A DNA stretch of 64,000 bases from Patescibacteria group bacterium (lineage in GTDB: Bacteria; Patescibacteriota; JABMPQ01): assembly GCA_041749335.1 (NCBI GenBank), contig JBGTBM010000010.1:4533-68532 (forward strand), read 5' to 3'. Of the stretch, positions 4,684-62,227 are shown in pieces. Position 1 is the stretch's first letter. Each line of letters begins with the position of its first letter. The notes below the pieces were generated by a model. It ran no database searches, was not told the DNA's origin, and saw only the letters and a program-made list of their open reading frames with translations. A program made the translations under genes and the position numbers.

Positions 4684-5949
<1,266 letters not shown>

Positions 5950-57993: not shown

Positions 57994-58062
57994 TTTAATT
58001 ATTTTAATACAAATATAGTTCTATATTTTAAGATCACGGTTTTTCCTGACCTACAATTATAA

Positions 58063-58353
58063 TTATTTAATTTTAAATTTATTTTGATAGATTTGCTCCA
58101 ACATATCTATAGTAGCTTGAACCGAAGGATTTTCAGTATTTTTTAATATTATCTTTTCCTTAAATTCATCATTTAAGGAGCCTAAAAACTCGTCTGCCCA
58201 AGACGGGGTAAAAGTAATAACGCCAGCAAAATCAACAATAATATTTTCATCTTTGTCTACATCTCTCAATGATGGCTTAAAGGCTGAATAGGATTCCTTG
58301 CCAAATTGGCGGCCATTTAAATTAGTACCGAATTTTTTTAAATAGATTATCAT
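58063..58353 (-). CDS. DUF4325 (STAS-like) small protein
   Basis: …IIVDFAGVITFTPSWADEFLGSL… matches the STAS-like DUF4325 core. Confidence 0.45.
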   Translation of the reverse strand: MIIYLKKFGTNLNGRQFGKESYSAFKPSLRDVDKDENIIVDFAGVITFTPSWADEFLGSLNDEFKEKIILKNTENPSVQATIDMLEQIYQNKFKIK

Positions 58354-58354
58354 A

Positions 58355-59092
58355 TTAAAATTTTATTAAGACTAAGCATCCTTGTATATATATTTTAGAT
58401 TTATTTATATCTAAATCATGATCATTTTTTTGAATAGTAAGTTGCGCGTCCCCCGTAGTGAATTTCAAATCTATCTCATTAGAAACAACAACATTTTTTA
58501 CAAACTTTAAACCATTCCCGCGATACTCTGGCGATCGTCCCGAAATAATTTCCGTGAAAGCGACACGAAGAGCGTCTTGATGATTAGATAATTCCGGCTT
58601 TACTTTTTTTAATGTATTTAAAATTCCCCTCCCGCGATCAGCCAAAATGACTTGACCTTTATTTAAATCATAAGCAAAAAATATTCCCGGTACATCCGGC
58701 CAATTTCCCAAATTATGATCAAATGAATTATTTCCAATCTCACCCGTAATAGCTGATATCAACGGATAAATTTTGTTTAATCGGTAAACCTTTCCCAAAT
58801 CATTCTGTAATCTGGTCAAACGCCCTTGGAAAACCGAAATATCTTTGCAATAATAATCTGCCGGTACTTCACTTGACTTTTCAGCAGCAGCCCATCTTTC
58901 TGCCAGTTTGTATAAATTTTTCACATAATTATTAAGAAATTTATCAATATCAATTTCTTTATAATATCTATGCGATGTGTCTTTTTTGCGGATAGAAATA
59001 AGTCTTCCGGATTCATCCCACCGACGTAAAGTTTGGATAGACACCCCTATCCTTTCAGCAGCCTGACTTATTGTTAAAAATTTATTATTCAT
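58355..59092 (-). CDS. MerR-type HTH fused to GHKL (histidine-kinase/anti-sigma-factor-like) ATPase
   Basis: HTH LTISQAAERIGVSIQTLRRWDESGRL. GHKL N-box EIGNNSFDH, G1 ADRGRGI, G2 GNGLKF. Confidence 0.55.
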   Translation of the reverse strand: MNNKFLTISQAAERIGVSIQTLRRWDESGRLISIRKKDTSHRYYKEIDIDKFLNNYVKNLYKLAERWAAAEKSSEVPADYYCKDISVFQGRLTRLQNDLGKVYRLNKIYPLISAITGEIGNNSFDHNLGNWPDVPGIFFAYDLNKGQVILADRGRGILNTLKKVKPELSNHQDALRVAFTEIISGRSPEYRGNGLKFVKNVVVSNEIDLKFTTGDAQLTIQKNDHDLDINKSKIYIQGCLVLIKF

Positions 59093-59133
59093 AATAATAT
59101 TATATCACAAATCTATACATTTTTACACTAAAT

Positions 59134-59904
59134 CTATACATTTTCCGGATTTTCCCGATCTAGGGCCCATTTCAACGGATTATATCTAATATAATAACGG
59201 ATTTCATCCAATGATTTCTCATTACGGATAATATGATCGTAAAATGATCGCTGCCAGGAGAAATTATTTAATCCCCGATTGCGAATTAATTTGGATGATG
59301 TTGTCTTAAACGCGCCAATCAATTCCGACAAAGATTTTATTTTCCCTGCCGGAACGGGTTGCGTTATGGGAACGTTAATGCTCGTTGTATGGACAGGTCG
59401 CGCGGTGCTGGTATTAATTTTTCCTTCAGAGACAATTTGCGTAACATTGCAATCAATATTCCTTGCCGAAACGGGCCGCTCTATGGAGACGTTAATGTTC
59501 GTTGTAGGGACAGGTCGCGTGGTGTTGGTATTAATATTTCCCGCAGGGATAATTTGCGTAATATTATAATCAATATTCCTTGCCGGAACGGGTCGCTCTA
59601 TGGAGACGTTAATGTTCGTTGTAGGGACAGGTCGCGACCTGTCCCTACGTTGAATTACCAAAATCCCATGGAAATGGTTTGGCATAACAATATATTCATC
59701 TAATCGGGCATATTGGTATTTTTTTGCCAGCCACAACCATTGATTTTCCACAATCTCCCCGTATTTATTCAAAATTATCCGATCATTAATAATCGAACCA
59801 AAATTATTTTTTCTATCTGCGGTGCATGGCGTAATATAATACAGGCCGTTTTTTGAATAATCGTAATTCAATAAACGATTATTTCTCCTCCTTGGTTTAA
59901 GCAT
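59134..59904 (-). mobile_element. tnpA: IS200/IS605-family (COG1943/RAYT-like Y1 HuH) transposase gene carrying an in-frame tandem-repeat insertion
   Basis: N-terminal …YIVMPNHFHGILVI (HuH). C-terminal SLSELIGAFKTTSSKLIR…FSWQRSFYDHIIRNEKSLDEIRYYIRYNP (catalytic Tyr helix). Between them are 2.5 copies of a 39-aa repeat. Confidence 0.6.
59347..59647. repeat. 2.5 x 117-bp direct tandem repeat ending in 26-bp perfect palindrome tagggacaggtcgcgacctgtcccta
   Basis: Units at 59347-59463, 59464-59580 and 59581-59637. Palindrome at 59622-59647. Confidence 0.85.
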
Positions 59905-59950
59905 AACAAGATCGGAATAATACTTATTTTTTTATTTTCGCGAAATTTGA

Positions 59951-60934
59951 TTATGGATTATTGGCGATCGCGCTTACCATCCATTCCCCGTTGGTATTTT
60001 TTTCCAAGGTGATCCAGCGATAATTAATTCCGTTTTGCCAGCCCATCTGTTCGCCTTCCGGCTTGACCTTAACCTCCAGCTCAAATTTGAATACTTGGCG
60101 ATCAGCGGTCCATTCTTCCTTATAAACTTCTTCCGTCTTTTTGACTTCCAGCTTTTCAAGAGTGTTAAAATTAACGCCCCAAGCTTGTTTTTCATTTTCT
60201 GAAACATCCATCATCGCCAAAGCGTTCGGGATATTTAAGGCGGCTAAATTGCTAATAAATTTATCGGCGATGTCCTGCTGGCTAGCGCCTAAATCTTTGG
60301 AATCTTCTTCCGGCAAATCAATCGGATTATTTTTTATTTCAAAAGATAAATTTCCCTGGATTTTTTCCGCGACCTTAGCGGCGAAATCAATCAGCTCATC
60401 ATCCTCCAAGCCTTTTCCGGCAAGATTGGTTTCAATCCTTACATACCGATTGGGATTGATAATCAAACGAATATCCCGCAATGTTTTGTCCTCGCGATAA
60501 GCTATCATGTTTTCCATTTTGATGCGCGGGTCGCTTCCATATGAGGCGTCCAATATTTCCAACCCCTTTTTCTGGTTTTCAACGTTTAAATTTTCCACCA
60601 TCATAAAAATCAACTGCCCACCGCCTCTTAACTTAGGATCGGTGTATTGCGCATTGTAATTCGGGTCATAAGTAAAATAATAACGGCAGGCCTGCAGCGG
60701 CACGATCCAATCAGGCTCCACTTTTACCACTTCCTTGCCGGTCGCGGAATACACAAAATCCGCGGTGATCGCCTTGCAGATATCCGTATCAATATCGCCT
60801 TTTATATCCTGAAGCTCATCTTGTTTGGCTTCATTTCCTTGGTTCGTCTCTCCCGCCGGACTGTCTTTTTTAGTACAGCCGATAAAGCTTAAACTCAAAA
60901 GAACGAGCAAGGCAATAAACCCGATTTTTTTCAT
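59951..60934 (-). CDS. lipoprotein, hypothetical
   Basis: Signal peptide plus lipobox FIGCTK. Confidence 0.4.
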   Translation of the reverse strand: MKKIGFIALLVLLSLSFIGCTKKDSPAGETNQGNEAKQDELQDIKGDIDTDICKAITADFVYSATGKEVVKVEPDWIVPLQACRYYFTYDPNYNAQYTDPKLRGGGQLIFMMVENLNVENQKKGLEILDASYGSDPRIKMENMIAYREDKTLRDIRLIINPNRYVRIETNLAGKGLEDDELIDFAAKVAEKIQGNLSFEIKNNPIDLPEEDSKDLGASQQDIADKFISNLAALNIPNALAMMDVSENEKQAWGVNFNTLEKLEVKKTEEVYKEEWTADRQVFKFELEVKVKPEGEQMGWQNGINYRWITLEKNTNGEWMVSAIANNP

Positions 60935-61393: not shown

Positions 61394-62227
61394 TTAATTT
61401 TTACTAAGCTTGAAATGTGGCTTTTCTGCTAATATGTACAATATTATTGCAATAATTATAATTGGCAACAAAAATATAAGATAAATATTACAAATATTAT
61501 TCCAGTTAAATATTTCAATTAATAAAATTACAATAAAAAAGGTTGGAATAAAATATAAAATATAATTTATTAGTTTTGACAAAGAAAAACCAATTATATT
61601 TTTATTAAGTTTATAAAGTTCATCATTAATAATATGAAAGTATGTTTTAAGACCTTTGCTATATCTAGATCCAATCATTTCGTAATGAATAATATAATTA
61701 TATTTATAAATTTTATCGGCAAATATTTTTTCATTTTCATCTAAACTATTTATGAAATATTGATATTGTTTTGAGGCTACCGTTTCTTTATATTCTGATT
61801 CCTTTTTCTTGCTGTTTATTTTTAAAGATAAATTAATATCACTTGCAGTTATCTGCCTTCTAAAGTTTTCTATAGATTTCATACTTTCAATTATCTGATT
61901 CATTTCAGCAATGGCGCTAAGCATATTATCCGATAGATGCACAACGCTCTGATCTAACATAATTCCTTTAATTGAGTTGTTTTGTGTATCAAAAATAATT
62001 CTAAATGGATTACTAAATTCCAATATTTTCTTATCATCTGGAGAACCTATGTAACCTTCGTTATTGGCACTAGCCCATCTACCAATTATTTTCAATTGAT
62101 ATTTAATTGAGCTTATAACTTTTATTTTTTCTAATATATGCCTTCTTTGATATTCAAAAAATATAACTAGAAAGGCAAGAACTGCAAATATTTCAGGTAT
62201 TTTATCTAACAATCTCTCAATCATCAT
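61394..62227 (-). CDS. membrane protein, hypothetical
   Basis: N-terminal and C-terminal TM helices. AT-rich. Confidence 0.3.
   Translation of the reverse strand: MMIERLLDKIPEIFAVLAFLVIFFEYQRRHILEKIKVISSIKYQLKIIGRWASANNEGYIGSPDDKKILEFSNPFRIIFDTQNNSIKGIMLDQSVVHLSDNMLSAIAEMNQIIESMKSIENFRRQITASDINLSLKINSKKKESEYKETVASKQYQYFINSLDENEKIFADKIYKYNYIIHYEMIGSRYSKGLKTYFHIINDELYKLNKNIIGFSLSKLINYILYFIPTFFIVILLIEIFNWNNICNIYLIFLLPIIIIAIILYILAEKPHFKLSKN

Follow-up and report, generated by a model that had tools for sequence, protein, structure and literature searches.

TnpA_REP of E. coli (RayT/YafM, PDB 4ER8) cleaves beside REP hairpins. Palindromes carried in frame by protein-coding genes are known from the Rickettsia palindromic elements. 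Intragenic REPs and repeat clusters encoding 43-82 amino acids were described by Di Nocera et al. (2013, PMC3733652). The closest described relatives of the gene studied here belong to TnpA_REP subclass 2.4, which corresponds to RAYT group 4 of Bertels et al. (2017). According to the sections of Quentin et al. (2018, BMC Genomics 19:475, PMC6006769) that deal with this subclass, its members are marked by the signatures NH[IFV]H, WQ, and YIxNNP and by an 8-amino-acid insertion at the end of αB; the authors assigned them through clustering and with HMM profiles. A further insertion between β3 and αC varies strongly in length and sequence, and short DNA repeats account for the length heterogeneity of this insertion domain. 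The associated REPs are double-foot, form GT[AG]G...C[TC]AC, and are inserted in frame between the HuH and Tyr motifs. In the same sections, E. coli TnpA_REP is placed in subclass 2.2 (DHLH, WE, YIHYNP), in which the β3-αC insertion is absent, and the E. coli REPs, which are single-foot with bulged stems, are located outside it.

The gene described here is a rayT-like gene from a Patescibacteria genome, located in a 64-kb stretch of DNA that was analysed as a whole and is called the window. We consider it likely that it encodes a RAYT with its cognate REP carried in frame in a tolerant loop, that the tandem array next to this REP is a secondary growth of the slippage type, and that the enzyme is probably active. 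Its NHFH and WQ motifs match the signatures of subclass 2.4, and YIRYNP shows one deviation from YIxNNP. A double-foot REP, in frame between HuH and Y, and a length-variable insertion between β3 and αC are shared as well. As this layout was published in 2018 for subclass 2.4, the window gene is, measured against the sections cited above, an extreme but ordinary example. It differs from the subclass as described there in that neither flanking nor other REPs were found within 64 kb; the hosts named there are Cyanobacteria, Bacteroidetes, and "various phyla", whereas the present one belongs to the Patescibacteria. The coordinates of all features are given in Table 1.

Table 1. Positions in the window of the rayT-like gene, its motifs, and its repeats
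Feature	Position	Strand	Basis
tnpA_REP / rayT-like gene, 256 aa	59134..59904	-	Open reading frame list, Pfam PF01797, homologues, 4ER8 match
Tyr motif Y238-I-R-Y-N-P243	59176..59193	-	Y238 is the predicted catalytic tyrosine
W217-Q218 motif, start of strand β4	59251..59256	-	Alignment of 119 homologues
Insertion domain, residues 86-189, between β3 and αC	59338..59649	-	AF2 model, alignment
Tandem array, 117 bp x 2.5	59342..59636	-	TRF; unit dissection
Extra REP half-arm GTATGGACAGGTCGCG	59387..59402		94% complementary to 59633-59648
Extra REP half-arm GTAGGGACAGGTCGCG	59504..59519		100% complementary to 59633-59648
28-bp perfect palindrome GTAGGGACAGGTCG / CGACCTGTCCCTAC, double-foot REP (5' GTAG ... 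CTAC 3')	59621..59648		Exact complementarity
HuH motif N76-H77-F78-H79 (AAC CAT TTC CAT), strand β3	59668..59679	-	Sequence reading

Enzyme family, fold, and conserved residues

The 771-nt reading frame is open throughout. As stated in the original prediction, its product is a Y1 HuH enzyme with two conserved halves parted by about 100 extra residues, which is borne out by a Pfam match, the fold, and the motifs. The Pfam family Y1_Tnp (PF01797) was matched above its gathering threshold (E=3.6e-5, 24.3 bits vs. a cut-off of 23), with the alignment restricted to the C-terminal half because the insert splits the domain. The best and only meaningful NCBIfam match was REP_Tyr_transpos (NF047646) with 61.5 bits, which missed the cut-off of 80. 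The insert is not the cause of this low score, since the protein with the loop deleted also remained below 80 bits (65.1 bits); a homologue (P0002) reached 68.8 bits.

A homologue search with the 256-aa protein yielded 930 homologues. Its sole sequence match in the PDB was 4ER8, which also headed the Foldseek ranking of PDB structures (TMt 0.62), followed by the TnpA proteins of IS608, ISDra2, and IS200. Sequence identity to E. coli TnpA_REP is about 13%; the two enzymes share the Y1 HuH fold, their HuH motifs and catalytic tyrosines align, and both are presumed to act on a GTAG-footed REP hairpin. In an alignment of 119 homologues, H77, W217, Y238, and N242 were invariant and H79 and Q218 were present in at least 90% of the sequences; the consensus around the tyrosine was YIxNNP. 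The catalytic tyrosine had originally been placed in the segment WQRSFYDHIIR. This assignment had to be abandoned: in the HMM alignment Y238 of YIRYNP falls on Y115 of 4ER8, which we take to be the catalytic residue of the E. coli enzyme. In the AF2 model the core has a pLDDT above 90, and the HuH motif lies on a strand formed by residues 77-84. Family and fold are evident from these comparisons, and the motifs are intact. The product is a REP-associated tyrosine transposase and, by its sequence signatures, probably belongs to TnpA_REP subclass 2.4/RAYT group 4.

The Y1 HuH core is also shared with the IS200/IS605 TnpA enzymes (IS608, ISDra2), which occupied ranks 2-30 of the Foldseek search, and both groups recognise hairpins in single-stranded DNA. 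Unlike in these insertion sequences, no subterminal left-end and right-end hairpins were found to flank the window gene, and a tnpB-like partner was not evident among the genes adjoining rayT. The gene is present in one copy in the 64-kb window, which holds no second RAYT gene, and its neighbours are syntenic with those of the closest syntenic relative (L081). Judged on the 64 kb and on this synteny, it would seem to be a resident gene and not an insertion sequence.

The palindrome within the gene

A perfect palindrome of 26 bp had been reported at 59622-59647. It is exact, and one more base at either end also pairs perfectly, so that the full palindrome is the 28-mer GTAGGGACAGGTCGCGACCTGTCCCTAC at 59621-59648, which is translated in frame as (R)RDRSRPVPT. 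The 28-mer is single in the 64-kb window and was matched in none of 100 shuffled sequences. The energy predicted for its hairpin is -21.1 kcal/mol for RNA and -12.2 for DNA. A search of the 64-kb window for further palindrome copies, by which the original prediction was to be checked, found none with up to three mismatches, and no flanking REP or other GTAG-footed hairpin was detected there. The palindrome, first described as REP-like, is a genuine REP as judged from its GTAG foot and from identical 28-mers dispersed elsewhere. The gene is thereby physically associated with a GTAG-footed REP hairpin. An intrinsic terminator was considered as well and was ruled out because a T-run is absent after the hairpin on either strand. 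A literature search with the 28-mer and with the peptides RDRSRPVPT and VGTGRDLSL gave no match.

Tandem array and insertion loop

An in-frame 117-bp repeat in 2.5 copies had been claimed and was recovered by TRF with zero indels and 87% matches. The reading frame is kept, as 117 bp equal 39 codons. On the coding strand, the units run from 59636 to 59520, from 59519 to 59403, and from 59402 to about 59339, the last one being partial (~64 nt). Identity between units 1 and 2 is 90%, and 11 of their 12 differing nucleotides fall in amino-acid-changing codons; across the array, divergence between copies is 10-18%. Each unit opens with the 3' REP arm CGCGACCTGTCC(C/A)TAC, encoding RPV(P/H)T. This arm recurs exactly at 59504-59517 and with one mismatch at 59387-59400, and four REP-arm matches were counted in the window vs. 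0.04 expected. A complete REP and, behind it, two additional half-arms with spacers thus make up the array. Every unit starts with a REP arm, which ties the repeat to the hairpin, in agreement with the hairpin-nucleated duplication proposed at the outset.

In the AF2 model the insert lies between β3 (HuH) and αC (residues 192-209) and is devoid of secondary structure. Its pLDDT, averaged over blocks of ten residues, ranges from 37 to 74, and residues 111-160 lie below 50; the insert is therefore predicted to be a disordered surface loop. This loop is tolerant of sequence change, as indicated by the disorder, the pLDDT above 90 of the core, and the predominance of amino-acid-changing differences between the units. 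We infer that the repeat peptide is functionless and drifts neutrally.

Linkers were compared among 77 genes, comprising the window gene and 76 relatives from many phyla. Their length, counted from HuH to GAFK, ranges from 28 to 121 aa, and the alignment is hypervariable in length in this region. The window gene has both the longest linker (121 aa) and the largest repeat period (117 bp) of the set. This extreme length would suit a decayed gene, in which the expansion inactivated the enzyme or marks its degeneration, leaving a relic in a genome that lost its REPs; so would the lack of any other REP in the 64 kb and the 11 of 12 amino-acid-changing differences, which suggest that the repeat peptide is free of purifying selection. 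We regard decay as improbable all the same: besides the open frame, the residues H77, H79, W217/Q218, and Y238 have all been kept, nucleotide identity to L081 is 94% in the C-terminal half, other family members with linkers of 95-112 aa likewise look intact, and the insert is modelled as a disordered loop off a confidently folded core. For the same reasons of open frame, intact motifs, and modelled structure, the earlier suggestion that the repeat inactivates or regulates the enzyme is unsupported. From sequence and model, enzyme activity has probably been retained.

REPs and repeats in related genes

The original prediction had treated the palindrome and repeat as a peculiar event in this one gene. 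This view does not hold, as a REP occupies the same site in about 75 of the 77 genes and 20 of the 77 have tandem repeats of their own. The identical 28-mer was found in the linkers of 22 genes, and compensated variants in 20 more, in which both arms are altered together (ACAACCCTAGGGTTGT, AACGGTCGCGACCGTT, ACAAGTCGCGACTTGT). Altogether, the palindrome in about 75 linkers is either this one or a compensated form of it, within nine mismatches of the 28-mer, whereas control stretches almost always showed at least 12 mismatches. Natural occurrence of the repeat region in intact homologues had been named as evidence against a gene-specific origin; it was found for the palindrome and not for the 117-bp unit, which is absent from intact homologues.

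The REP is read as RDRSRPVPT at 22 loci and as VGTGRDLSL at 20, while the third frame, which contains a TAG stop, is used at none of these loci. Because two reading frames are in use, the hairpin DNA is conserved and the peptide is not. RDRSRPVPT was accordingly rejected as a conserved protein motif, half of the relatives reading the same DNA as VGTGRDLSL. In annotation, both peptides should be treated as translated REPs. Taken together, the compensated stems and the two frames indicate that the target of selection or copying is the DNA hairpin rather than the peptide. The position of the REP within the linker and its reading frame vary among relatives; the frame agreed with that of the nearest neighbour in 31 of 42 cases. 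From these sequences, the frame appears partly clade-bound with several switches, a pattern that would fit repeated insertion and local frame changes alike. Neither the reading in two frames nor one identical 28-mer across phyla is mentioned in the sections of PMC6006769 on subclass 2.4.

Identical REP copies flank the gene at 13 of the 77 loci, and the in-gene copy usually equals the flanking copies at the same locus. This bears on a cis-regulatory explanation, in which the hairpin is not a passenger or seed REP and is kept because, for example, it affects mRNA stability, makes translation pause, or is bound by the RAYT for autoregulation. Its near-universal presence at one site across phyla and the strong RNA hairpin (-21 kcal/mol) would be expected in that case, and a role of REPs as RNA elements in 3'UTRs is known (e.g. 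Di Nocera 2013, PMC3733652). The identity of in-gene and flanking copies points instead to one process at the DNA level, common to both, and not to an RNA signal specific to the gene; in addition, the hairpin is not an intrinsic terminator, and its position in the linker and frame are not fixed. We therefore give cis-regulation only a slim chance. The window gene resembles the intragenic REPs of PMC3733652 and the Rickettsia elements in that a small palindrome is tolerated in frame at the protein surface. It differs from them in that the palindrome sits in the gene of its own presumed transposase, and in that one site is occupied in almost the whole family, whereas those other elements are inserted sporadically.

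The period of the tandem repeats in the 20 repeat-bearing linkers is a multiple of three in 17. Arrays are thus present in about a quarter of the family members, where they have grown independently, and a 5-nt motif screen detected the REP arm in 10 of the 20 units. By eye, most of the strongest arrays show REP-arm-derived sequence, while several weak, short-period ones (L013, L023, L045) among those unmatched in the screen show no visible REP sequence.

Comparison with the closest syntenic relative

Copy-number variation of the repeat, which had been suggested as a point to look for, was found in L081. This relative is ~90% identical, and its gene is shorter than the window gene by 234 bp, or exactly two units. 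Identity between the two loci jumps from 69% to 94-96% at ~50 nt 5' of the REP. The single unit of L081 is a chimera of copies 1 and 3, its junction lying inside the stretch in which these copies are homologous, and nothing in L081 corresponds to the distal 63 bp of the unit. For the last two reasons, a simple duplication from an L081-like ancestor was dismissed; judging from the alignment, the data are better explained by loss of sequence in L081 or by a more complicated course of events. The comparison indicates that repeat copy number is still labile.

An assembly artefact, in which the 117-bp array was mis-assembled or collapsed, had been raised as a possible objection. Hairpin-centred fold-backs do exist in metagenome contigs with this REP (L108, L154), and the exact protein was found in one assembly only. 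We nevertheless judge an artefact extremely unlikely, because the copies are 10-18% divergent and hence resolvable by reads one by one; moreover, the reading frame is preserved, and the independent assembly of L081 differs by an exact unit multiple.

Proposed origin of the array

From its homology with E. coli TnpA_REP, the enzyme would bind the REP hairpin in single-stranded DNA, recognising the GTAG foot, and would cut and rejoin the strand via an HuH-bound metal and Tyr238. In the proposed course of events, the loop-coding DNA would have held an in-frame cognate double-foot REP, as in nearly all family members, and a stretch opening with the 3' arm of this REP would have been duplicated in tandem to give the full REP and two half-REPs with spacers. 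To judge from the sequence, the route was most likely replication slippage or unequal recombination between direct repeats, and fork stalling at the hairpin may favour duplication. Because the enzyme must stay in frame, only stop-free variants of a length divisible by three would survive. L081 would have lost, or never gained, exactly two units. Against this reading weigh the NCBIfam score below the cut-off, the absence of any other REP or GTAG-footed hairpin from the 64 kb, and the linker length, the greatest of the 77 genes, which may have impaired function.

Alternatively, the RAYT itself might nick and rejoin DNA at its own intragenic REP, so that half-REP arrays and a hypervariable loop would arise by self-targeting and not by slippage. 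The arrays of the window gene and of L001, L007, L035, and L016 all abut a full REP and repeat one arm, cleavage beside REP hairpins is known for the E. coli enzyme, and the jump in identity to L081 near the REP is compatible with REP-associated recombination. On the other side, the duplication is head-to-tail and takes in whole units, spacers included, and the junction in L081 falls inside the homology of copies 1 and 3, which is the pattern expected of homology-driven slippage or unequal exchange, and half of the repeat-bearing linkers (10/20) gave no REP-arm match in the unit in the 5-nt motif screen. Self-targeting is thus considered unlikely, and slippage-type growth is preferred.

More speculatively, the intragenic REP may serve as a heritable seed or master copy that keeps enzyme and substrate linked during horizontal transfer, with self-nicking building the arrays. 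We hold this to be doubtful. If true, it would explain why one identical 28-mer accompanies a RAYT family across many phyla; in compact, REP-poor genomes the only substrate of the enzyme would be its own gene, and the hypervariable loop with its labile copy number would be self-inflicted.

Under the preferred reading of a cognate REP with a secondarily grown array, the window gene alone matters little, being a Patescibacteria-type example, and the most expanded among the genes compared, of a published peculiarity of one RAYT subclass. Of possible use for REP/RAYT studies are the in-gene REP with its two frames and compensated stems, the independently grown in-frame arrays together with the pair formed with L081 (~90% identical, two units apart), which offers a natural system for hairpin-associated repeat instability, and the exact 28-mer REP itself, which is common to distant phyla and abundant in metagenomes.

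Dispersed copies of the REP

In viral and metagenome contigs, 103 of 131 copies of the 28-mer had no RAYT nearby. At six loci, the flanks of dispersed copies extend the palindrome by 9-19 bp. Some longer REP-flank palindromes are fold-back artefacts of whole contigs, as L108 and L154 are palindromic over their full length.

Identification of the window transposase

The gene rayT (see the table of features) encodes a REP-associated tyrosine transposase (RAYT, TnpA_REP) with the family fold and intact catalytic motifs. Its Pfam Y1_Tnp match was barely over the threshold and aligned with the C-terminal half only, because the domain is split. The sole meaningful NCBIfam match, REP_Tyr_transpos, scored 61.5 bits, short of the 80-bit cut-off; the score was 65.1 bits after deletion of the insert and 68.8 bits for P0002, a compact homologue, both still below the cut-off. 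In the PDB, a profile of 25 homologues matched one sequence only, that of E. coli TnpA_REP (4ER8). In this alignment Y238 (motif YIRYNP, family-invariant) fell onto Y115 of 4ER8, the catalytic tyrosine of that enzyme; the predicted catalytic residue is therefore Y238, and not the tyrosine of WQRSFYDHIIR implied by the wording of the original prediction.

An AlphaFold2 model for which 119 homologues served as input showed a confident core (pLDDT >90) at roughly residues 11-85 and 190-250. Residues 86-189, the linker between the HuH strand (E77-84) and helix H192-209, were unstructured, with pLDDT means of 37-74 per 10-residue block. Foldseek ranked 4ER8 first among PDB structures, followed by the IS608, ISDra2, and IS200 transposases. 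By analogy with E. coli TnpA_REP, the substrate of the enzyme would be single-stranded DNA with GTAG-footed hairpins. The gene may alternatively be in functional decay; the catalytic motifs are intact, and the idea that the repeat expansion inactivates or regulates the enzyme found no support.

A homologue search returned 930 proteins, mostly of 165-226 aa, many labeled Patescibacteria and some "REP element-mobilizing transposase RayT". Their length differences all fall between the HuH motif and the GAFKTTSSK helix, a stretch where RDRSRPVPT is found in most close homologues.

TnpA_REP subclass 2.4 of Quentin et al. (2018; PMC6006769), the same group as RAYT group 4 (Bertels et al., 2017), has the signatures NH[IFV]H, WQ, and YIxNNP and "double foot" REPs (5' GT[AG]G ... 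C[TC]AC 3'). Its members have an insertion of highly variable length between beta3 and alphaC; REPs lie in frame between the HuH and Tyr motifs, and short DNA repeats add to the length variation. The assignment of the window protein to this subclass rests on its motifs (NHFH, WQ), the insert between beta3 and alphaC, and the double-foot REP carried in frame; the tyrosine motif, YIRYNP, differs at one position from the family consensus YIxNNP. A REP within the transposase's own gene is a published, family-wide property of one RAYT subclass, and the window gene is a new, extreme example of it. Intragenic REPs are also described in other genes, some as clusters encoding 43-82 aa (Di Nocera et al., 2013).

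Features in and around rayT (window coordinates)
Feature	Position	Strand	Description
rayT ORF	59134..59904	minus	256 aa
Perfect palindrome	59621-59648		28 bp, halves GTAGGGACAGGTCG and CGACCTGTCCCTAC; inside rayT ORF; complementarity analysis
Tandem array	59342-59636		period 117 bp x 2.5, 87% matches, 0 indels; Tandem Repeats Finder
Antisense ORFs	59279-59569; 59359-59703	plus	96 and 114 aa; open over the array
Neighbor pair, order kept in L081	58063-59092	minus	245-aa protein with N-terminal MerR/HTH_17 domain (58355-59092) and 96-aa DUF4325-like protein
15-bp perfect direct repeat	59109-59123; 59130-59144		AAATCTATACATTTT x2, spacing 21 bp
AT-rich stretch	61400-61700		GC 0.18-0.20 vs ~0.3-0.45 nearby

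The palindrome is a REP conserved as DNA

The palindrome had been placed at 59622-59647 with 26 bp; it is exact, but pairing extends by one base on each side. It occurs once in the 64-kb window and was matched in 0/100 shuffles. One of its arms is also present in every repeat unit (59504-59517 exactly, 59387-59400 with one mismatch), giving 4 arm matches versus 0.04 expected. Neither REPs flanking rayT nor other GTAG-footed hairpins of any sequence were found in the 64-kb window, in which the copy within rayT is the sole REP.

Eighty genomic loci were fetched from many phyla (Patescibacteria, Bacteroidota, Gammaproteobacteria including Francisella, Poribacteria, Nitrospinota, Omnitrophota, Planctomycetes). 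The linkers of these relatives encode RDRSRPVPT or VGTGRDLSL(Q/H), which are one 28-nt sequence in two reading frames (AGG GAC AGG TCG CGA CCT GTC CCT AC and GTA GGG ACA GGT CGC GAC CTG TCC CTA, respectively); the third frame includes TAG. A perfect double-foot palindrome lies within the linker in 42 of 77 genes (76 relatives and the window gene), 22 of them with the identical 28-mer; 20 are read in the VGTGRDLSL frame, 22 in the RDRSRPVPT frame, and none in the third. Variant palindromes are altered in both arms together (ACAACCCTAGGGTTGT, AACGGTCGCGACCGTT, ACAAGTCGCGACTTGT, GCAGGTCGCGACCTGC). When degenerate copies are allowed, 75/77 linkers match the 28-mer with no more than 9 mismatches, compared to 12 or more almost always for same-length control stretches from the same loci. 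The frame agrees between nearest neighbors in 31/42 cases and has therefore switched several times. The in-gene palindrome is a conserved DNA element rather than a conserved peptide.

At one locus, L061, three REPs (4937-4964, 5259-5286, and 5669-5696) lie around or within one rayT. They differ mutually by symmetric double substitutions (AATGGTCGCGACCATT, AACGGTCGCGACCGTT, AACAGTCGCGACTGTT) and each is a perfect palindrome, which implies strong selection or an arm-symmetrizing process.

The proposed REP-like nature of the hairpin is borne out by copies elsewhere, and the palindrome is a genuine REP. Palindromes of the in-gene type also flank rayT in 13/77 loci, typically at 16-90 bp on the upstream side or 26-220 bp on the downstream side, and are often identical to the in-gene copy of the locus. 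The exact 28-mer, unique within the window, is carried by relatives, by four IMG/VR viral contigs (L082-L085), and by at least 120 metagenome contigs (L086-L205). Among 131 occurrences listed in metagenome and IMG/VR contigs, 17 lie within a RAYT ORF, nine at most 300 bp from one, one at 315 bp, and one more than 1.5 kb away; for 103 the fetched locus has no RAYT ORF. The stop-free frame across each listed copy has a median of just 75 aa, and most listed copies are therefore extragenic. Sixteen lie in stop-free frames >250 aa, possible cases of in-frame insertion into unrelated genes.

Extended palindromes were seen in L108, L154, L148, L103, L113, L174, L192, L138, L107, and L133. L108 and L154 are perfect palindromes over the whole contig with the REP at the center, and in L148 and L103 a REP-centered palindrome reaches the contig edge. 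The contig-wide palindromes most probably arose as artefacts of assembly or amplification, through folding back at the hairpin. Six further loci have genuine 9-19-bp extensions into differing flanks, which could mean that the REP inserted into a hairpin already present or that the palindrome grew.

The tandem array is anchored on one REP arm

Tandem Repeats Finder (TRF) confirmed the 117-bp repeat of 2.5 copies. On the coding strand the full REP is followed by units starting at 59636, 59519, and 59402. As proposed, the hairpin nucleates the repeat: each unit opens with the 3' REP arm CGCGACCTGTCC(C/A)TAC, which encodes RPV(P/H)T. Over 117 nt, units 1 and 2 share 90% identity, and unit 3 is partial (~64 nt). 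Eleven of the 12 differences between units 1 and 2 fall in codons altering the amino acid; the repeat peptide is therefore not under purifying selection, and constraint is limited to length and frame. The divergence of 10-18% between copies argues against an assembly artefact. The antisense ORFs over the array are most likely a by-product of repeating a stop-free unit and not evidence of genes.

TRF detected repeats in 20/77 linkers, with a period divisible by 3 in 17 of the 20. Strong arrays (L001, L016, L021, L022, L035, L047, L053, L072) have periods of 21-54 bp; in the window gene both period and linker are longer than in any other of the 77. A 5-nt motif screen found the REP arm in 10/20 repeat units, and REP-arm-derived sequence is visible in most strong arrays.

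Comparison with a syntenic relative

Gene order in L081, the contig that encodes P0002, matches that of the window (RAYT, MerR-like, DUF4325, DUF2779). Most matched blocks show 81-94% nucleotide identity. The two rayT genes align end to end with one gap of exactly 234 bp, absent from L081, so that copy number differs between close relatives in whole units, here two. The single L081 unit is mixed: CCCTAC and ACGAAC at the 5' end are shared with copies 1 and 2, ATAACGC at the 3' end with copy 3, and the 63-bp distal part is missing. The most parsimonious history is therefore the loss of two units in the L081 lineage through exchange between direct repeats; a recent duplication in the window is disfavored by the same mixed ends and missing 63 bp.

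We infer that the peripheral and disordered nature of the loop lets it accept insertions derived from REPs, and that arrays would grow and shrink via slippage or unequal recombination between direct repeats. The hairpin may promote such change, as three left arms (59387, 59504, 59621) are each able to pair with the lone right arm (59633-59648). Alternatively, the origin of the array may be enzyme-catalyzed, and the hairpin may have a regulatory role.

Identity between window 58000-60640 and L081:1-2450 varies in a mosaic fashion: it is ~92% in the upstream lipoprotein-like gene, only 58-78% in the initial ~240 nt of rayT (window ~59920-59700), and 92-100% from ~50 nt 5' of the REP through the stop codon (contrast across rayT 69% vs 94%, Fisher p=6e-12). 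Such a pattern resembles the outcome of local allele replacement, the breakpoint being beside the REP. The MerR-like and DUF4325-like genes are far more diverged than their surroundings (47-80% per 60-nt segment, mostly 47-70%, then back to ~90%), and the pair is therefore evolving fast. Overlapping both the stop codon of rayT and the sequence upstream of the MerR-like gene, the 15-bp direct repeat is a possible operator or promoter element; in L081 one copy is conserved and the other in part.
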